Virus record (IMG/VR): IMGVR_UViG_3300002895_000002
Coordinates: 149,117-213,116 of that record
Reading direction: 5' to 3' (one strand)
DNA: 64,000 nt
Origin: a virus
Lineage: Duplodnaviria; Caudoviricetes
Part shown: in pieces, positions 2,122 through 64,000 of the stretch
Layout: every line of letters begins with the position of its first letter
Position numbering within the stretch: the stretch's first letter is position 1
Translations under genes and position numbers: made by a program
Notes under the pieces: generated by a model
Databases searched by the model: none
The model's input: only the letters and a program-made list of their open reading frames with translations
What the model was told of the DNA's origin: nothing

Positions 2122-3028
2122 ATGTTTATAATAGAACCAAAAAAGACTAAGTCGAATAAAAAAGTAGCAGATTATACTAGGTGTGAGGTTTCCTGTGACA
2201 AATGTGGTAAAGAATATAATAGTAGCTATAAACAGGTTACTGATGGTAGACTAAAATATCAGGTTGATTTATGTCGAAGTTGTAGACAGATTTATCAATA
2301 TGAAAATGGAATTAGAGATAATCAAAGAGCTTCAATTAGTAAAAATGGAAAGGTAAGACGTATGAAGAAGTATTAGGGATTGAAGGTGCAAAAAAGCGAA
2401 AGAGAAATTGAAATCTTATACTGGCGAAAAATCATCAAATTGGGGTGGAACATGGCATGGCAGTAGAGAGAAAGCGGATCAACGAAATGCTAGTATAAAA
2501 GGTAAGACTATTATAGAGATATACGGTGAAGAGAAAGCAGAAACAATACGAAAAAAATTAGGTGTACCTGGCTCTCGAAATGGACAATTTGGAAAACCGG
2601 CACCTACAGGATCCGGGAATGGGTGGTCTGGATGGTATAAAGGGTTCTTTTTTCGGTCATTATTGGAATTATCTTTTTTGGTATCAATGATGAAACAAGG
2701 AAAACACATCATATCCGCAGAGAGTAAAGAATTTAGAACAGAATATACAGATTGGGAGGGAAAAAGAAGAAATTATTTTCCAGATTATGTAATTGACGGA
2801 ATTGTTTATGAAATCAAACCTAGTGGATTAGTGAATACTAAAACTAATAACCTAAAATTCAATGCTGCTAGAGAAAAATTTGGTACGGAAAGATTTATCA
2901 TTCTCACAGAAAATGATGTTGATAAAATATCCGATTCTACAATAAAATTCTTGTATGATAATAACGAAATAAAGTTTATTCAACGATATGAAGAAAAGTA
3001 TAAGGAGCGTTATGCCGAACTTTCTTGA
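2122..3028 (+). CDS. Free-standing homing endonuclease, PD-(D/E)xK TnsA-like; a single gene broken by two homopolymer indels
   Basis: ORFs 2122..2376 and 2408..3028 join through +A at the A5 run (2341) and the A6 run (2390). N-terminal CxxC pairs; C-terminal FRSLLE...YFPDYVIDGIVYEIKP. Close paralog at 59613. AT-rich. Confidence 0.8.
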
Positions 3029-4652
3029 TTTTTTTGAAAAGAACAAGATAAGTCCTAGAAGTCAGCAGTGTGAAGTATTATCCAAACTTGAATCAAATTG
3101 GGATAGATATGATAATTTCGTTATATCAGCCCCAACCGGTGTAGGGAAAAGCTTCATTGCTCTCGCCATTGCTATGGGCACCACAAACTCATTCCTTCTC
3201 ACCGGAACCAAATCCCTCCAAAGTCAGTACATCGAGACGTCGGATCAGCTCTACAACATCAAAGGACGGGCAAACTATCCCTGTGGTCTTAACCGGACCG
3301 TTCGTGCTGACATGGGGCCATGTTCCATCATGCCTCAGATCAAGCGAAAATGTTATGGGAATGGGTCCTGCATCTACCACAACGCAAAGCTTGGTGCGAA
3401 GAAGGCCAAGACTATGCTGACCAATTATGCTTACTTCCTGACAGCTCTCAATTCCGGGTCTTTTGGTGAGCCATATGAGTGTAAGCGAGCGGTGGTTCTA
3501 TGTGACGAAGCACATGACCTTGAGAAGTGTCTAATCAACTTCGCTGAATGTGTCATTTCACCATCTGATATCAATAAGAAGTTCCATATCCAAGATCCCG
3601 CGTGGAAGTTTGGAAACAGTGAGAAGAAAAATCTCGAGATCCTGTTTGATATCAAGGCTGAGATTGGGAAGGAGATGAACAAGTGTACCTCCCAAATCGA
3701 TCTTATCTACGCCAAGTATGGCATCACTTCGGAAGATACTTCCGGGATGTTCAAGATGAACGGAGCAGACACCGATAAGATTGCTAAGCTAGGCCTTAAG
3801 TTAGCTCAGCTTGATCGAACAATCAAACCCATCGACATCTATGAGGCAAACCAGTCGTTTCGGTGGATTATTGATGCAAACACTGATGACAATACCTTGA
3901 AAATATCTCCCATATCTGCCTCTGGTATTTTCTCTGAATACATGCAGCACTTTGGTGGAAAATTTGTATTCATGTCAGCCACCATTGGAGATCCGAATGT
4001 ATTCTGTCGGGAGCTTGGTCTAGACCCGGAGCGTACTGCCTTCATTCGAACCGGAACTGATTTCCCTGCGGAGAATGCTCCCATTGTTTTTTGTCCTGTT
4101 GGGAAAATGAATTACAAGGATCTTCCTGCTACCATGCCGAAGATTGTGGCAGGTGTGATTGAGATTCTCAAAGGTCATGCTGAAGATAAAGGGATCATAC
4201 ATACCGGGAATTACAAGATCTCTCAAGCCATCATTGACGGACTTCCAAGAGAGCTTAAATCCAGACTGATCCATCGAGACATGAAGTACGGACAGAAGAT
4301 CAGTAACGAGGACCTAGTCCGGATGCACACCCACGATAAAGGTCCGACTGTTCTCATCTCCCCATCGTTGGGAACTGGAACCTCCCTTGATGATGACCTT
4401 TCTCGGTTCCAGATCATTGTCAAGCTGCCATTTCCTTCACTGTTGGACGCAAGGGTAAAGATAAAAGCGGATGAGGATCCCGACTGGTACCTGGACACCA
4501 TGTGGCGTGAAGTTCAACAATCTTCGGGGCGATCCATTCGAAGCATGGAAGATCATGCTGTTACTTACGTTCTGGACAGTTCTACTGATTGGTTCTTCAA
4601 GAAAGCAGAAAAAGTTCTGCCTCCTCATTTCAAGGAAAGGTGGCACTGGTGA
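3012..4652 (+). CDS. SF2 DinG/XPD-like DNA helicase with Fe-S cysteine cluster
   Basis: APTGVGKS Walker A, KGRANYPC plus three further Cys, CDEAH, MSAT, and HELICc2-type motifs (QIIVKLPFP, QSSGRSIR); RBS AAGGAG before the ATG at 3012. Confidence 0.9.
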   Translation: MPNFLDFFEKNKISPRSQQCEVLSKLESNWDRYDNFVISAPTGVGKSFIALAIAMGTTNSFLLTGTKSLQSQYIETSDQLYNIKGRANYPCGLNRTVRADMGPCSIMPQIKRKCYGNGSCIYHNAKLGAKKAKTMLTNYAYFLTALNSGSFGEPYECKRAVVLCDEAHDLEKCLINFAECVISPSDINKKFHIQDPAWKFGNSEKKNLEILFDIKAEIGKEMNKCTSQIDLIYAKYGITSEDTSGMFKMNGADTDKIAKLGLKLAQLDRTIKPIDIYEANQSFRWIIDANTDDNTLKISPISASGIFSEYMQHFGGKFVFMSATIGDPNVFCRELGLDPERTAFIRTGTDFPAENAPIVFCPVGKMNYKDLPATMPKIVAGVIEILKGHAEDKGIIHTGNYKISQAIIDGLPRELKSRLIHRDMKYGQKISNEDLVRMHTHDKGPTVLISPSLGTGTSLDDDLSRFQIIVKLPFPSLLDARVKIKADEDPDWYLDTMWREVQQSSGRSIRSMEDHAVTYVLDSSTDWFFKKAEKVLPPHFKERWHW

Positions 4653-5768: not shown

Positions 5769-6160
5769 ATGAAGATCAGAGAGTTTTCCAAAACATCTTC
5801 GAAAAGAAACGTGAGCTTCGGAGAACCATTGCTTCCCTTGAGAGCATCATTGATTCCAAGGTAGAGATCATCGATGAGCTCAAGCGGCAGGTCAGTGAAG
5901 CACAGGAAGCCCTTTCCAAGAAGTACGAGGACTGGGCCGATGAAGCAGTGATCGACTTTGAAGGGCTGAAGGTCGTCAGTGTGGAACGGTTCTACCGTGA
6001 AAATGCTGACATGCCGAATACCACCATCGGTTATTGGGGTGTGGACGGTGACGGGAACCCCAAGATGAAGGAGTGGATCCTGTGGATCTCCCCTGAAGAG
6101 CACAAGAAGATCGCCGCTGATTTCAGAGCATATCTGGCTAAGAAAGGAGCAAACGAATGA
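5769..6160 (+). CDS. Hypothetical coiled-coil protein, frameshifted at the T4 run 5784-5787
   Basis: RBS AAGGAG plus ATG at 5769; adding one T gives MKIREFFQNIFEKKRELRR..., continuous with ORF 5948..6160. Confidence 0.6.
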
Positions 6161-6879
6161 AAGACGAAGCACTGTTCAAGGAGAAGGTTGACGAGTTTGC
6201 TGTTCTACGTATCGAGCGAGGTGAGCAATCGTCCCGACTGAGTAAGACCGCCAAGCTGGCAAAGAACCTGATTGGGATGAAGGGGTCCGACTACAAGAAG
6301 ATCACCAACATCATCTATTCCACCACGCCGGCTGCAAAAGAGCGGGCTGACAAGAAGAACACCAGTAAGAAGAAGCCGCTCACCAAGCTGGAAAAAGCGG
6401 CTGAGCAATTTGCTGAGCTCTACTCCCAGCTCACTCTCCTAGGCGAGGGTAACCGACTTGAGCTGCTCATGGCCAACAAAGGTGTGAAGATCGAGGCCGC
6501 ATTCGAAGGTGCTCTCACCGACAAGTATGAGCTCCGCAAACCCAGTGAGAAGACCGAGGAGCTCTGGGAAGAGCTGATGGGTGGTGAAGAGATCCCCGCA
6601 ACAACCCAAGAAAGGGCCAAGTGTCTGATCAACGCCGGCCTGGTGTGTCTCAACGATGTTGCTGAGATCTCTGACAAGATGAACAAGGAGATTCTTGAAG
6701 AAGCGGCTGAGGACTGTGGTGTGATCAAGAAGCACCTTGTCAAAGCAGTTGGTCTCCGGGTCAAAGCAATCAAGAAAGGGGAGGATGTTATCCCTGAAGC
6801 AGTTGACGCAATCTCGTCGGACGCGGAACAACTCTGTGAAACCCTCTCGGCAATGATTCCGGGAGAGAAAGAAGAATAA
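6157..6879 (+). CDS. Hypothetical helical protein, possibly a DsbA-like dsDNA-binding protein
   Basis: Good RBS and phage codon usage; lies upstream of gp33 as dsbA does in T4; weak sequence resemblance only. Confidence 0.4.
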   Translation: MKDEALFKEKVDEFAVLRIERGEQSSRLSKTAKLAKNLIGMKGSDYKKITNIIYSTTPAAKERADKKNTSKKKPLTKLEKAAEQFAELYSQLTLLGEGNRLELLMANKGVKIEAAFEGALTDKYELRKPSEKTEELWEELMGGEEIPATTQERAKCLINAGLVCLNDVAEISDKMNKEILEEAAEDCGVIKKHLVKAVGLRVKAIKKGEDVIPEAVDAISSDAEQLCETLSAMIPGEKEE

Positions 6880-32751: not shown

Positions 32752-32768
32752 GACGGTTTCTCCTTACC

Positions 32769-32854
32769 GATAAATAGATGTGAACGGGGACAGCAGTTTC
32801 TCCACTGTTGATCGTCTACGCCAATAGCGATCTAACCCGTCTCATATATTTATC
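32769..32854 (+). ncRNA. Putative HEG-associated three-way-junction RNA, copy 1, including flanking convergent late promoters
   Basis: Covarying stems shared with the copies at 44127 and 57277. Confidence 0.7.
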
Positions 32855-32878
32855 TAATCCAAGGTTTTTGGACAGAAT

Positions 32879-44114: not shown

Positions 44115-44126
44115 GACATTCTCCCT

Positions 44127-44219
44127 GATAAATAGATGTGACCGGGACAGCGGAGATATTCTCCCCTCCGTTGGCTGTCGACCCCCATCGCAGCCTTACC
44201 GGTTCCATTCTTATTTATA
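44127..44219 (+). ncRNA. Putative HEG-associated three-way-junction RNA, copy 2
   Basis: Covarying stems, conserved GACAG/TT/TTA junction segments, flanking convergent late promoters. Confidence 0.75.
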
Positions 44220-44225
44220 AATCTA

Positions 44226-44254
44226 TTGACATTATCAAGAAAAGAACATATAAT
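44226..44254 (+). promoter_or_regulatory. Consensus sigma70 promoter
   Basis: TTGACA-N17-TATAAT. Confidence 0.9.
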
Positions 44255-57264: not shown

Positions 57265-57276
57265 GACAGTTCCCTT

Positions 57277-57369
57277 GATAAATAGATGTGACGAGGACAG
57301 CAGGGTTGTTCCCTTCTCTGTTGGTCGTGTGTTCCCGCACCGACCTTACTCGTTCCATTCTTATTTATA
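57277..57369 (+). ncRNA. Putative HEG-associated three-way-junction RNA, copy 3
   Basis: Covarying stems; a G-U pair on the + strand. Confidence 0.75.
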
Positions 57370-57375
57370 ATTTCC

Positions 57376-57404
57376 TTGACATTTTCCATACTTTTTGTTA
57401 CTAT
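57376..57404 (+). promoter_or_regulatory. Sigma70-type early promoter, AT-rich replacement carried at the HEG end
   Basis: TTGACA-N17-TACTAT. Confidence 0.8.
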
Positions 57405-59517: not shown

Positions 59518-59580
59518 ATGGAGGAACGAATAAAGAAAGTGTACATGGGCATAGGCATTCCGGGAAGCGAATTTTTATGA
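59518..59580 (+). pseudogene. Orphaned original 5' end of the kinase gene
   Basis: Reads ...IKKVYMGIGIPGS then EFL*, matching MNKKIFISIGVPGSGKS at 60575. Confidence 0.75.
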
Positions 59581-59612
59581 AAAAATATAAATAGCTATGG
59601 AGGAATAAATCC

Positions 59613-60578
59613 ATGGCATGTATAAAGTGTAGAAGTGAAGAGAAATCAGGCAAACAAGGTGACCGGCGTTGTCCAAATTGTGGTTATCGCCCATCACCAT
59701 ATGAATGTAATATTGAAAAATATGGCAAAGAAGAAGCAGATAGATTATTAGAAATAACAAAAGAAAAAATGAGAAACAGAAAACCAACAATGAAAGGAAA
59801 AACAGTTTACCAATGTTGGTTAGAAAAATATGGCAAAGAAGAAGCAGATAGATTATTATCACAAATGAAAAACAAACAATCAGAAAGAAGACAAGGAGAA
59901 AATAACCCATTCTTTGGAAAAAAACAAGATAAAGAAAAATTAAAAAAAGCACAAGCAAATAGAAAAAAAGAATCATATCAAACCGAAGATTTCAAAAATA
60001 AATGCAAAAGACTCGGTTCATCAAATGGGATGTTTGGAAAAACAGTTTTAGAATGTATGGAAGCAAAATATGGTATAGAGGAAGCAAAAAAAAGATGGAC
60101 AGAACAAAATAAGAAAAAAGCAAGATATGGTTCAGATAACGGACAATTCGGAAAACCAGCGCCTATGGGATCCGGAAACGGTTGGTCTGGATGGTTTTCT
60201 GGTTTTTACTTTCGTTCATTGCTTGAATTGTCCTTTATTGTTCAAAGTATCAAAAATGGTATAGAAATAAAATCAGCTGAATCAAACGATTATCGAATCG
60301 AATATTATGATAAAAATGGTAAAAAAAGAAATTATTTTCCGGACTATGTAATAAATGACGTAATATACGAAATCAAACCATATTCATTATTGAATACGGG
60401 TGATAATAAACCAAAATTTGATGCGGCTAAAGAAAAATTTGGACCAGAAAAATTTATCATTCTTACTGAAAAAGAAATTGACAAACTACCCGATGATGTA
60501 ATAAAATTGATGTATATAAACGGCGAAATAAAATTTACCGAACGGTATAATAAAAAATTCAAAGAAAGATACTTGTGA
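59613..60578 (+). CDS. Free-standing homing endonuclease, PD-(D/E)xK TnsA-like
   Basis: YFRSLLE...NYFPDYVINDVIYEIKP; repeated LEKYGKEEA modules; late promoter TATAAATA at 59586-59593. Confidence 0.85.
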   Translation: MACIKCRSEEKSGKQGDRRCPNCGYRPSPYECNIEKYGKEEADRLLEITKEKMRNRKPTMKGKTVYQCWLEKYGKEEADRLLSQMKNKQSERRQGENNPFFGKKQDKEKLKKAQANRKKESYQTEDFKNKCKRLGSSNGMFGKTVLECMEAKYGIEEAKKRWTEQNKKKARYGSDNGQFGKPAPMGSGNGWSGWFSGFYFRSLLELSFIVQSIKNGIEIKSAESNDYRIEYYDKNGKKRNYFPDYVINDVIYEIKPYSLLNTGDNKPKFDAAKEKFGPEKFIILTEKEIDKLPDDVIKLMYINGEIKFTERYNKKFKERYL

Positions 60579-61039
60579 ATAAGAAAATTTTTATTTCTAT
60601 TGGTGTTCCGGGTTCAGGCAAGTCCACCGCTCTCGCTGAGATCTGTCGGAACCGCACATACCGCTACGTGTCTGCTGATGAGGTTCGCCTTCTCGTCAAC
60701 GGTTCAGTGGAGTCTCAGGCCAACCCCAGTAAGGTATGGGGTATCGTCTTCGAGCTCTTCACCAAGGCCCTCGAGGACCCGACCTGTGACACCATCGTGG
60801 TCGATAACACTAACATTACCTTCGACAACCGAAAGAAGTTCTATGACGTTGCCAAACTATATGCCAAGCAAGTAGAGTTCGTCCTGGTTTGGGTTGATGT
60901 TCCAGTTGAGGTTGCAATACGTCGGAATGCCGGCCGTAGCCGCAAGGTACCTGAGCACGTCATCCGTGGCATGGCAGAACGGCTCCAACCGCCTACCGTG
61001 GATGAGAGAAATGCTTTCGAGGTCATTGTGGTGAGATGA
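60575..61039 (+). CDS. P-loop polynucleotide kinase (AAA_33, PseT kinase-domain-like)
   Basis: IGVPGSGKST, VSADEVR, VVDNTN...RKKF, RRNAGR.RKVPE.VI. Confidence 0.85.
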   Translation: MNKKIFISIGVPGSGKSTALAEICRNRTYRYVSADEVRLLVNGSVESQANPSKVWGIVFELFTKALEDPTCDTIVVDNTNITFDNRKKFYDVAKLYAKQVEFVLVWVDVPVEVAIRRNAGRSRKVPEHVIRGMAERLQPPTVDERNAFEVIVVR

Positions 61040-61377
61040 GAGCAATCATCCCGAAGAAGAACTTCAGAGCACTATTCATAGAGGCAATCGAATACTGTGA
61101 CAGGTGCTGGATTGATATGTTGGACTGCAAGACGTCATGGCGGAGATTGCCGTCCGATAAGTCCATTGATGATGTACTGGAGATGTGCGAGAATGGCAAG
61201 CCGATTCTTACATGTATCTATCGAGTCGGACGGCTTGAAGGTGCGGAGGATTTCTATGAGTTCTGCGCATCCACCATGCGCGCTAACGAACCAGATTACT
61301 ACCTCTGGGTATTGGTAAAACCAGAATATGCCCGGAAGCTCAGCCTGAAGTATGGCTTGAAAATGAAGGAATACTGA
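61036..61377 (+). CDS. Hypothetical protein
   Basis: ATGA coupling to the previous gene. Confidence 0.6.
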   Translation: MRAIIPKKNFRALFIEAIEYCDRCWIDMLDCKTSWRRLPSDKSIDDVLEMCENGKPILTCIYRVGRLEGAEDFYEFCASTMRANEPDYYLWVLVKPEYARKLSLKYGLKMKEY

Positions 61378-61391
61378 TATATACGGAGACA

Positions 61392-61643
61392 ATGAAGATC
61401 ACCGAGGAAAAAGAGACCATCGTCCGTTATGTCACCGCTTACAAGTGCTCGGTCTGTAAGAAAGAGTACACTGACATCATGGAGCTCCAGGAGTTCTCCA
61501 CAATAGAGTTCGAGGGCGGGTATGCCTCGGTGTTCGGAGATGGTGCTGTCGGCCGCCTGGACATCTGCCAGCACTGCTTGAAGGAACGGTTGGGTGAGTT
61601 CGTGGAGTGGCAAGAGTACGACGAGAATGGAGATCCGGTATGA
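61392..61643 (+). CDS. Small zinc-finger protein
   Basis: CSVC...DICQHC. Confidence 0.6.
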   Translation: MKITEEKETIVRYVTAYKCSVCKKEYTDIMELQEFSTIEFEGGYASVFGDGAVGRLDICQHCLKERLGEFVEWQEYDENGDPV

Positions 61644-61921
61644 GCAAGATACTGACGATCACCGCCAGTGAAAAACGGTTCTATGAGCTGAAAGATGCTT
61701 TCAGGGGAATGGAGTGAATACTTTTCCAAGCCAAAGACCAAATTCCAACCATCGTGCAGAATGACAAGGAGGTGTCGACTGATGATCTGGTGGAGTTCAT
61801 CAATAATTACCAACAGACCCGGAATAAACTCAGGGATGAGTTTGAAGCCATGATGGCTGCACTCGACACATCGTACAAGCGGATCATCCTAGAGATCAAG
61901 AAGGAGAATGATATGCTATGA
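61640..61921 (+). pseudogene. Hypothetical gene interrupted by an in-frame TGA at 61715
   Basis: The same frame continues with phage codon usage to the stop at 61921. Confidence 0.4.
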
Positions 61922-62235
61922 TAATGTATGCAGTCACCACTATTGACATCAGGAATGGGAAGGCACCTACATCAGCATGTTGTTGCGTCGGGATTTTCAA
62001 GGATCTGGAAGATGCCGAAGACGTGGTCCTGAATAACAGGGCAGACATTGCTGAAGGCGAAACCAATGAGTTCGTCGTGATCGAGGAAGTGGAAGTCGGT
62101 ATGGTATACCCGCTCTGCATGACCCGCTATTGGTACAAGTATGATCCTGATCCGTCTAACGAAGACGAAGGTCTGTACTGGCGGACAGAAGAACCGGAGT
62201 GGGCAAGCGGGATCGTGAACTGGGGAATAGGGTAA
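61918..62235 (+). CDS. Hypothetical protein
   Basis: AAGGAG RBS; DIAEGETNEFVVIEEVEVG motif. Confidence 0.6.
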   Translation: MIMYAVTTIDIRNGKAPTSACCCVGIFKDLEDAEDVVLNNRADIAEGETNEFVVIEEVEVGMVYPLCMTRYWYKYDPDPSNEDEGLYWRTEEPEWASGIVNWGIG

Positions 62236-62245
62236 AGGAGACATC

Positions 62246-62492
62246 ATGGCAACCAAGCGTTTTTTGTGACTGCTGTGGAAGAGAAGTAGGGTTTCGGCAG
62301 TTCACTGAGTTCTCCATCAAGAAACACATCGATCAGATCGGTGTCAAGGAGATATTCGGTGGTTTTGTCGATAGTGCCGGCAACCCGGTGTCTGATGCAT
62401 CTGTTTCATATGACCTCTGTAATGCCTGCTATAATAGCGTAGCAATGGCTGCCATGGAAATATTCAAGGATCACATGCATGAGAATCACTGA
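62246..62492 (+). CDS. Small zinc-finger protein, frameshifted at the T6 run 62260-62265
   Basis: AAGGAG plus ATG at 62246; FCDCCG...DLCNAC. Confidence 0.5.
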
Positions 62493-62655
62493 GGAAACTC
62501 ACGAGATAATGGAGAAATATGGATGGACTATAATCCGTGGGTCTCCATTGGAAATCGAGCACCCCGATGGTTCTTTCGCGACGATGATGGTAGCAGAGGT
62601 GTTCATCAATGCAACAGTTGCCGCCGAGCTCAGAAAGAGGAAAAAGAAAAAATGA
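62479..62655 (+). CDS. Small hypothetical protein (58 aa)
   Basis: MRITEETHEIMEKYGW..SPLEIEHPDGSFAT; stop overlaps the ATG at 62652. Confidence 0.55.
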   Translation: MRITEETHEIMEKYGWTIIRGSPLEIEHPDGSFATMMVAEVFINATVAAELRKRKKKK

Positions 62656-62783
62656 GAAAATTAGCGAGTGTAAAAATAATCAAGGAACTCCTCCCCATCG
62701 AGGGAGCCGACCGAATCGAGGTAGCCAAACTCGAAGGCATCATGTGGCAGTGCGTGGGATTGAGGTGGTGTGTGAACATATGA
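62652..62783 (+). pseudogene. Orphaned original 5' end of the RNA ligase gene
   Basis: MRKLASVKIIKELLPIEGADRIEVAKLEGIMWQCV then an unrelated tail and stop; ATGA-coupled to the upstream gene. Confidence 0.85.
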
Positions 62784-62791
62784 CAAACTAT

Positions 62792-62829
62792 AGTTCTTTT
62801 ATAAATATAAAATAAATTATAAAGGAACT
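62792..62829 (+). promoter_or_regulatory. RBS-sequestering hairpin containing late promoter TATAAATA (62800-62807)
   Basis: AGTTCTTTTATAA / TTATAAAGGAACT, 13-bp stem covering AAAGGA. Confidence 0.75.
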
Positions 62830-62832
62830 GTC

Positions 62833-63612
62833 ATGAACTACCAGTCTATCTATGATCGGCTTATTGCCAAGTTCAAAGATCATCCAAAAGTCAAGTGTCA
62901 AACCAACGATCATCATATCATCCCAAAATGTTTCAAAAAGATTGATGACATCGAAGACATTGATGGACAATGGAACAGAGTGCATTTACCTCATCGTGAA
63001 CACTTCATTGCTCATTTGCTTCTTGCCCGTATATGGCGGGGACATAGAGCCAAAGGACCGATGATGGCGAAAGCATTCAACCGTATGTCTAACTGCGGAT
63101 GGTATACATCCAAAGATTATGAATGGATAAAGTCTTCATTAAATTATTCCCATTCTGAAGAAACCAAACAAAAACTTTCTGAAATCAACATTGGAAAGAA
63201 AATGTCAAAAGAATCATGTCAAAAAATGTCAGATTCAAGAAAAGGAAAACCAATACCCAAATTGGTAGGCAGAAAAAGTTCAGTTGAAAAGATACAAAAA
63301 CAAAAAGATTGGTATGCTTCATTATCAGATGATGAAAAACAAATAATGAATCAAAAAAAGAAAGATTGGTATAATTCATTATCTCAAGAAGAAAAACAGG
63401 TAATAAGTGAAAAGATAAGCAAGAGGAATAAACGTCCAAAAACAGAAAAGGAAAAACAGGCAACAAGAGAAGCAATAACAAAATATTGGGCCGAAAATAA
63501 ACACAAAGATCCTCGTGTTGGCAAACCTAGAAGCAAAGAAACTATTGAAAAAATAAAAGAAACAAAAAGGAGAAAACGACTTGAGAAAATTAGCGACAGT
63601 AAGAATAATTAA
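62833..63612 (+). CDS. HNH homing endonuclease (family member 4)
   Basis: DHHIIPK..WNRVHLPHREHFIAHLLLARIW, HSEETKQKLS. Confidence 0.9.
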   Translation: MNYQSIYDRLIAKFKDHPKVKCQTNDHHIIPKCFKKIDDIEDIDGQWNRVHLPHREHFIAHLLLARIWRGHRAKGPMMAKAFNRMSNCGWYTSKDYEWIKSSLNYSHSEETKQKLSEINIGKKMSKESCQKMSDSRKGKPIPKLVGRKSSVEKIQKQKDWYASLSDDEKQIMNQKKKDWYNSLSQEEKQVISEKISKRNKRPKTEKEKQATREAITKYWAENKHKDPRVGKPRSKETIEKIKETKRRKRLEKISDSKNN

Positions 63613-64000
63613 ATCAATAATTCCGATAGAAAATGCTGATAAAATAGAATTGATAGAATTGGAAGATATATTATGGAAAGTAGTATGTCAAAAAAATATC
63701 CATAAGGTCGGTGATAAGGTCATCTACTGCGAGATTGACAGCATTCTCCCAGCGGAACACTTCCCTGACCTGGAAAAGTGTAACTACCGCATCAAGACGA
63801 TGAGACTCAGAGGCTGCCTGAGCCAAGGCTTCATCATACCGCTGAATGTGGCTTTGGAGATCGCTCGGCAGAACCAGGCTGCCGTGTGTCTCGATACTGG
63901 TTCTGATTGGACTCATGCTCTCGGTATCACCAAGTACGAGCCACCTGTCAAGTTCACCATGGGAGATATGGCTGGACCGTTCCCGTCTCATCTCATCCCA
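63581..64000 (+). CDS. RNA ligase, DRB0094/Rnl2-like family, 3'-partial, with an AT-rich recoded N-terminus
   Basis: AGGAG plus TTG at 63581: MRKLATVRIIKSIIPIENADKIE...GDKVIYCEIDSILP...RIKTMRLRGCLSQG...LGITKYEPP. Confidence 0.85.
   Translation, partial: MRKLATVRIIKSIIPIENADKIELIELEDILWKVVCQKNIHKVGDKVIYCEIDSILPAEHFPDLEKCNYRIKTMRLRGCLSQGFIIPLNVALEIARQNQAAVCLDTGSDWTHALGITKYEPPVKFTMGDMAGPFPSHLIP

Follow-up and report, generated by a model that had tools for sequence, protein, structure and literature searches.

How can a homing endonuclease gene lodge inside the coding sequence of an enzyme, with neither an intron nor an intein around it, and still be followed by a continuous reading frame for that enzyme? 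This question is raised by the last 64 kb (64,000 nucleotides, nt; hereafter the window) of the 213,116-bp IMG/VR virus record IMGVR_UViG_3300002895_000002, which belongs to a T4-like phage of 213 kb. Near the right end of the window, an open reading frame (ORF) for an HNH-type endonuclease lies between two starts of an RNA ligase gene. A first-pass annotation had proposed that the endonuclease gene invaded the ligase gene and supplied it with a replacement N-terminus, an interpretation that our comparisons with related sequences largely support. We consider it highly probable that the locus is a free-standing HNH-type cassette sitting within the 5′ end of an Rnl5-type ligase gene and homing together with a replacement gene start. 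Because the cassette brings a foreign copy of the first 39 codons, the ligase frame is rebuilt without an intron or intein: the foreign start joins in frame to native codon 40 onward, and native codons 1–35 are left as a redundant stub.

Two ligase starts flank the endonuclease gene

The native, ATGA-coupled and GC-richer ligase start at 62652 is cut off, as the first-pass annotation had described, and the new ribosome-binding site (RBS) and TTG codon that it had placed over the 3′ end of the endonuclease gene are both present (Table 1). From ATG 62652, the native gene reads MRKLASVKIIKELLPIEGADRIEVAKLEGIMWQCV before running into unrelated codons, giving a stub of 43 codons that matches PF21189 over residues 4–35 (expectation value, E = 4e-4). 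The second start, TTG 63581, lies 32 nt within the 3′ end of the endonuclease ORF, with the RBS and TTG overlapping the last 10 codons of that ORF, and reads MRKLATVRIIKSIIPIENADKIELIELEDILWKVV. This TTG aligns with the ATG of all native ligases, and no other ATG, GTG or TTG codon stands in frame between it and the preceding stop; the next in-frame ATG does not come before about codon 74. The RBS/TTG site is identical in L150 and L098, two relatives described below. When the endonuclease flanks were compared by tblastx, the two ligase starts matched each other at E = 6e-12.

A breakpoint check on GC content and codon use found a sharp AT-rich tract: GC is 0.21–0.37 over approximately 62750–63700 and about 0.5 on either side, and GC content at third codon positions (GC3) is 0.15 in the substitute start and 0.29 in the endonuclease gene, compared with 0.63 in the stub and 0.74 in the rest of the ligase. 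The AT-rich start does fuse to the GC-richer gene near 63700, as had been claimed, but it is longer than the 35 codons assigned to it, ending at 63698 after 39 codons plus one base. The endonuclease ORF has its own start and is out of frame with both ligase pieces, and no Rfam family reached its gathering threshold in the window; the idea of an insertion into a coding sequence without an intron or intein thus holds.

Table 1. Positions of features at the ligase–endonuclease locus, in window coordinates.
Feature	Position	Strand	Details
Upstream 58-amino-acid (aa) ORF	62479–62655	+	TGA overlaps native ligase ATG (ATGA coupling)
Stub	62652–62783	+	Native ligase codons 1–35 (62652–62756), 8 unrelated codons, stop 62781–62783
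Cassette	62758–63698		941 nt, AT-rich, in place of 12 native nt (TCGGCAAGGGTC)
Upstream-gene fragment	62759–62777	+	19 nt, ATTGAGGTGGTGTGTGAA; matches interior of gene X (49/53-aa ORF) of relatives
Late-promoter-like box TATAAATA (T4-type motif)	62800–62807	+	26 nt before endonuclease ATG
HNH-type homing endonuclease (predicted)	62833–63612	+	259 aa; N-terminal nuclease domain and NUMOD3 repeats
RBS and start of rebuilt ligase	63568–63583	+	AGGAG 63568–63572, 8-nt spacer, TTG 63581–63583
Substitute ligase 5′ end	63581–63698	+	Codons 1–39 plus one base; GC 0.24, GC3 0.15
Native ligase remainder	63699–64000	+	L099-type to about 63930, then L152-type; runs off the window

Endonuclease-free relatives define the empty site

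Syntenic relatives that lack the endonuclease (L099, L152, L100 and a contig of run X3) have a single ligase start of the native, stub type. L099, a Logan contig approximately 91% identical to our phage upstream of the ligase, retains the ATGA coupling, with a 58-aa ORF (2272–2448) leading into an intact ligase gene (2445–3452). This ligase is 335 aa long, and its first 35 residues equal those of the stub at all but one position; at the nucleotide level, 103 of 106 stub positions are identical, with blastn homology ending at 62757, and the native remainder matches L099 at 112 of 113 positions. Since blastn pairs window positions 60606–62757 with 415–2550 of L099, and 63699–64557 with 2563–3418, 941 nt (62758–63698) replace 12 nt at codons 36–40. 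The contig of run X3, an activated-sludge run, joins 62757 to 63699 with the same 12 letters, TCGGCAAGGGTC, between them (runs X3–X7 are small-share runs and carry no information on habitat). The locus therefore shows a presence/absence polymorphism, with the cassette present in our genome and in L150 and L151, and absent from L099, L152, L100 and the X3 contig. Alignment with endonuclease-free relatives had been suggested as a check on the proposed invasion, and it bears the proposal out: these relatives have one intact ligase whose start equals the stub. No endonuclease-free relative carries both starts; L098 has the substitute start only, and the others the native start only.

The empty site also coincides with a conserved patch. 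The ligase genes of L099 and L152 are 73% identical over their first 330 nt and share a single 80-nt run of perfect identity (L099 2520–2599, L152 5076–5155; gene nt 76–155), centred on the replaced gene nt 107–118. No second identical run of 12 nt or more occurs between the two within these 330 nt. L100 is not conserved across the 80-nt region, so protein constraint does not explain the run. We infer that it may be a short conversion tract around a recurrent break.

The cassette occurs in a second, diverged ligase lineage

L150 (ENA ERZ27284713) and L151 (Logan SRR14639182, run X1) represent another lineage of the same phage group, and both carry a stub, the same endonuclease with 2 residue changes, and the same AT-rich start. 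Over 62770–63698, the cassettes of our genome and L150 are identical at 921 of 929 positions (99.1%), compared with 77% in the stub, 78.8% in the right flank and 78.6% in the upstream kilobase. The flanks of our genome are closest to L099 (97.2% in the stub, 99.1% in the right flank), and those of L150 to L152 (97.3% and 88.5%). The right-hand limit of the AT-rich tract is shared to the base by the two lineages, and beyond it each gene follows its own lineage. At 99.1% identity, against about 78% in its flanks, the cassette evidently moves as one piece, substitute start included; the alignments bear the hallmark of a unit that was copied into one and the same site in two diverged genes.

A different allele is found in L098 and in a second contig of run X3, where the AT-rich start, with its RBS and TTG, occupies the normal gene-start position. 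Identity between L098 and the window begins at the base equivalent to 63568, and L098 has neither endonuclease nor stub. In this allele the endonuclease may have been lost, or the site may have been converted and the endonuclease not gained. It shows the substitute start as the apparent sole start of a ligase gene in nature, which is the best available, albeit indirect, support for its function. Immediately before this start, L098 has an 85-aa CxxC-rich ORF (166–423) whose stop overlaps the shared RBS, and this ORF is absent from our genome, L099, L150 and L152. Small-gene content upstream of the ligase differs in each relative examined.

The substitute start is a diverged homologue

The first-pass annotation had described the substitute start as a recoded equivalent of the native one, which goes too far. 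The two starts share only 60% identity at both the nucleotide and amino acid levels, with 14 of 35 residues differing and synonymous sites saturated; the substitute start is a diverged homologue and does not differ by synonymous changes alone. It keeps 12 of the 13 positions that are nearly invariant among 113 ligase homologues, and contains a clade-specific 2-residue insertion found in about 4 of the 113, including this phage group's own ligases. The retained insertion and invariant residues indicate that the substitute start derives from a ligase of this clade and has had a long, separate, AT-biased history. It went through that history either within the cassette or in some AT-rich relative not yet sampled. 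The substitute start is identical in L098 and has 2 mismatches in L150.

No donor with an N-terminus of the substitute type was found among the 113 homologues, and the nearest are the clade's own native starts. Queried with the ligase N-terminus, with the endonuclease and with a profile built from its paralogues, IMG/VR and JGI metagenomes returned only distant relatives of at most 48% identity (short partial segments up to 56%), and none of the 80 endonuclease loci from these scans adjoins an RNA ligase. One might go further and view endonuclease and substitute start as a stable mobile unit, in which the AT-rich start has travelled and evolved with the endonuclease and not with a host genome, a built-in repair-and-immunity module for colonizing phage ORFs without an intron or intein. 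We regard this extended view as possible but rather doubtful.

The endonuclease and its paralogues

The endonuclease matches PHROG 655 (‘homing endonuclease’) at E = 4.5e-30 and contains Pfam NUMOD3 repeats (8e-9), which are present in all 8 paralogues that we aligned. We assign it to the HNH type on the basis of an invariant HH...N...H...H pattern in this alignment, a weak match to the HNH model PF01844 in one paralogue (E = 0.075), and its Atlas neighbours, which are viral clusters with PF01844 in 13–38% of members (feature 0.92–0.93; structural template-modelling (TM) score 0.72–0.77); the label is accordingly a prediction. A near-identical copy, P0148, is encoded in L150/L151. In a large protein collection, no endonuclease other than this copy shares the C-terminal DNA-binding part. 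Short contigs of RNA libraries X2 and X7 map to the endonuclease gene, one of them spanning 63445–63595; because these may be DNA carry-over, we do not count them as evidence of expression.

The genome contains 11 paralogous endonuclease genes, namely that of the cassette and 10 others. Boxes of the motif found upstream of the cassette's endonuclease, TATAAATA, occur 9 times in the window against 1.1 expected, and three further boxes precede endonuclease-type ORFs at distances of up to about 100 nt (minus strand, 44212 and 57362; plus strand, 59586). We take this box to be a putative late promoter. A conserved leader of approximately 110 nt precedes nine of the 11 paralogous genes, and its outer stem, ATAAATAGA/TCTATTTAT, overlaps a TATAAATA box; the leader is found at 57265–57380, 44115–44230 and 32752–32870 (minus strand) in the window, and at six more places in the genome. 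The leader has no Rfam match, and its core is missing from the ligase cassette and from one other copy. Relative to L099, the window has a second insertion at 59565–60605, between two genes that are adjacent there. This insertion holds a 321-aa ORF (59613–60578), behind a TATAAATA box at 59586, that contains a NUMOD3 motif and weakly matches a TnsA-like nuclease.

The ligase gene is a mosaic

The rebuilt ligase gene crosses the ends of the record, running to window position 64000 and continuing at genome positions 8–598 (L097). The first 7 nt of the record equal its last 7 nt (window 63994–64000, genome 1–7), and when this overlap is assumed, the ORF encodes 336 aa. Its product matches PF21189 at 3e-19 over residues 4–88, and its C-terminal part contains QKDDG (KxDG motif) and retrieves PF09414 proteins. 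An intact homologue, P0150, matches TIGR02306 at 4.5e-51 and, along its whole length, the Naegleria gruberi RNA ligase 5COT at 7.7e-38. The enzyme thus has the N-terminal OB domain (PF21189) and the nucleotidyltransferase domain (PF09414) of the Rnl5 type (Naegleria/Deinococcus, TIGR02306). Between lineages, including between the two carriers, the ratio of nonsynonymous to synonymous substitution rates (dN/dS) is 0.07–0.29, and all frames are open. The JGI gene calls miss the ligase altogether and list minus-strand ORFs in its place, and a blastn search of 62400–64000 against a GenBank phage collection gave no match.

The gene is a mosaic of three parts: nt 1–118 are foreign, nt 119 to about 350 are L099-type (approximately 99% identical), and from about 360 to the end the sequence is L152/L150-type (approximately 93%). 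The second switch, near window position 63930, falls at the position of a GIY-YIG endonuclease gene in relatives. In L150 (5749–7535) and L098 (435–2221), this gene (246 aa, TIGR01453 at 2e-26) interrupts the same ligase, leaving an OB piece of 119 aa and a nucleotidyltransferase piece of 250 aa; L150 thus has both endonucleases within one ligase gene. AT-rich, ligase-like coding sequence lies on both sides of the GIY-YIG gene and travels with it. Endonuclease sites thus lie at both switches in the ligase mosaic and mark boundaries of exchange. On several-kb contigs from other samples, P0153, P0155, P0156, P0160 and P0170 are among many stand-alone proteins of approximately 110 aa that comprise the ligase OB domain (PF21189) and nothing else, and separation of the OB and catalytic domains may be recurrent in Rnl5 ligases.

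A model for the origin and spread of the cassette

How might such a layout arise? At the left edge of the cassette, the 19-nt fragment ATTGAGGTGGTGTGTGAA corresponds to gene X, which sits upstream of the ligase in relatives (L098 61–81, L150 4110, L152 4637), with an estimated chance expectation of about 1e-5. The left junction falls at codon 35 in our lineage and at codon 25 in L150, where the stub joins the cassette within the 19-nt scrap and the ligase sequence ATCGAGGTGGC resembles the scrap sequence ATTGAGGTGGT. These junctions suggest a donor with the order gene X, endonuclease, ligase, in which the endonuclease would have held its usual intergenic position.

In the first transfer, the left break end (codon 35/36) would have been joined to the donor illegitimately, by 1–2 bases of microhomology, leaving the stub and the 19-nt scrap of the upstream gene. 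The L150 form would then derive from a later short-repeat deletion or from alternative pairing. For subsequent rounds, the endonuclease would cut intact ligase genes at or beside codons 36–40, and the break would be repaired from a cassette-bearing genome, with the stub as left arm and the gene body as right arm, so that the whole cassette is copied. Once formed, the stub offers homology on the left, and homing of the entire unit can then proceed in the conventional way. The substitute 5′ end and the splitting of the site would together make the carrier allele uncuttable. Most likely, the layout is a by-product of illegitimate one-sided repair and not a designed feature.

Alternative explanations

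The alternative that survives best, although we judge it unlikely, is ordinary co-conversion of flanking markers by an intergenic endonuclease. In that case the AT-rich start would be the donor's own, the stub would be repair debris, and the chimeric ligase might be non-functional or dispensable. One-sided illegitimate repair is documented for T4 (PMC2988022), and co-conversion would accommodate the upstream-gene fragment with which the cassette begins and left junctions that differ by lineage, as well as the L098 and X3 alleles, in which the AT-rich start stands at its normal position with neither endonuclease nor stub. The further split of the ligase by the GIY-YIG gene in L150 and L098, the occurrence of the layout in only one of 11 paralogues, and the change of Gly29 to Asp in the substitute start also fit this explanation. 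It is harder to reconcile with the spread of the stub-bearing cassette, as a unit, to another ligase lineage (99.1% identity, flanks about 78%), with ligase frames that are all open at dN/dS of 0.07–0.29, and with a substitute start that keeps 12 of 13 invariant residues behind a good RBS. What chiefly separates co-conversion from the explanation we prefer is whether the rebuilt gene is of any importance to the phage.

If the ligase 5′ end had been duplicated locally in tandem, and the two copies had diverged where they stood before the endonuclease inserted between them, the two direct protein-level repeats that flank the endonuclease would result. We consider this history very improbable, given GC3 values of 0.63 and 0.15 and saturated synonymous sites within one genome, the sharp AT-rich tract that is near-identical, together with the endonuclease, in a genome whose flanks are only 78% identical, and the single start in endonuclease-free relatives. 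Equally hard to credit is an assembly chimera, that is, a metagenomic mis-join of two related phages, one of them AT-rich: the record is a metagenome assembly and the ligase is cut by its ends, but the same stub–cassette–ligase order recurs in the independent assemblies L150 and L151 from other samples and in L101, a second record of the genome, and contig depth is even across the junctions in run X1.

Homing of a cassette with a replacement start thus remains our preferred explanation, and the following observations weigh against it. The layout is not systematic in this genome: a test for flank duplication was negative for the other 10 paralogues, and only the cassette copy is accompanied by a duplicated gene piece. 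Among the residues of the substitute start, the exception to family invariance, Gly29 to Asp, affects a position that is Gly in 111 of 113 homologues. The ligase may be dispensable, given its additional split by the GIY-YIG gene in L150 and L098. IMG/VR, the JGI metagenomes and the large protein collection yielded no donor in which the endonuclease precedes a ligase gene that is not duplicated. As for the endonuclease itself, its HNH catalytic domain misses the Pfam threshold, a sequence and profile search of the PDB gave no match, and its AlphaFold model is too poor for a fold search (mean predicted local distance difference test (pLDDT) score 61); its putative cut site is placed from the junctions and the identity island only. 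Finally, L101, the JGI's second record of the same genome (213,114 bp, in another permutation), has 5 extra nt (in the region 6160–6175) that frameshift the ligase. These fall precisely at the join of the IMG/VR record, where L098, L150 and L152 agree with the in-frame version. Because the difference coincides with the record end, it is probably an end-joining artefact.

Discussion

The closest published analogues are the mORF gene hybrids of fungal mitochondria, a likeness that the first-pass annotation had already drawn. These are known from atp6 of Allomyces macrogynus and from atp6, atp9, cox2 and nad3 of Glomus (PMC3630166), and C-terminal duplications of atp6 and cob lie beside endonuclease ORFs in Endoconidiophora (PMC6279837). 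As in our phage, an endonuclease ORF sits in a protein gene without an intron or intein, a foreign and diverged gene end is read in phase with the native core, and the native end is kept as an unused duplicate, the foreign piece clustering apart from the host sequence. The phage case differs in replacing the 5′ end, with its own RBS and start codon, and not the 3′ end. It is also found in a phage and not a mitochondrion, involves an endonuclease of the HNH/NUMOD3 type in place of LAGLIDADG or GIY-YIG, and keeps the endonuclease as a separate, overlapping ORF where the fungal ones are fused in frame to the host gene. The predicted phage hybrid thus corresponds to a fungal mORF hybrid in mirror image.

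Work on T4 endonucleases has established distal cleavage, co-conversion and, in one-sided repair, microhomology junctions (PMC2988022), and SegB, SegF, SegG and MobE exemplify intronless homing, with co-conversion of flanking genes and marker exclusion (PMC2988022, PMC2790892). Our locus resembles these systems in having a free-standing HNH-type gene with a late-promoter-like box in a T4-like phage, a target in a neighbouring conserved gene with co-inherited flanking donor sequence, and a carrier allele that differs from the target at the site. The T4 examples, however, lie between genes and have no duplicated gene piece, whereas here the element is inside an ORF and sets a dead stub against a replacement start; moreover, it is the stub-bearing form that spread to a second lineage. 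Free-standing endonucleases also create genes in pieces, as with mobE in nrdA of Aeromonas phage Aeh1, mobA between T4 genes 60 and 39, and a seg gene in gene 43 of phage 25 (PMC2988022). The setting is alike: a T4-like phage has such an endonuclease within a conserved enzyme gene, and neither intron nor intein is involved. In those cases two polypeptides must reassemble, whereas here one polypeptide is rebuilt and the upstream piece is redundant: residues 1–35 of the stub are also encoded by the rebuilt gene. Only the separate GIY-YIG insertion in L150 and L098 makes a gene in pieces in that sense.

In ICP1-like phages, nuclease genes are reported at the boundaries of genetic exchange (PMC10448857), and the mosaic boundaries of our ligase (63698/63699 and about 63930) likewise fall at endonuclease sites. 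A term search of that report finds ‘duplication’ only for endonuclease coding sequences and their DNA-binding domains, and not for host gene ends. We found no phage 5′-end replacement in the review of T4 mobile DNA or in full-text searches of literature outside subscription journals; the word stem ‘duplicat’ is absent from that review (PMC2988022).

For annotation, such loci will yield a short orphan ORF and a gene with a non-ATG start hidden within the endonuclease ORF. The conserved 80-nt patch, as the likely target, provides a directly testable pair of endonuclease and site. For phage evolution, the coinciding mosaic boundaries link endonucleases to fine-scale shuffling of gene segments. 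Beyond residence in an intron or intein, or the splitting of an enzyme, carrying a replacement gene end would be a third option open to homing endonucleases within phage protein genes, one that is backed here by an empty site and a second carrier lineage.

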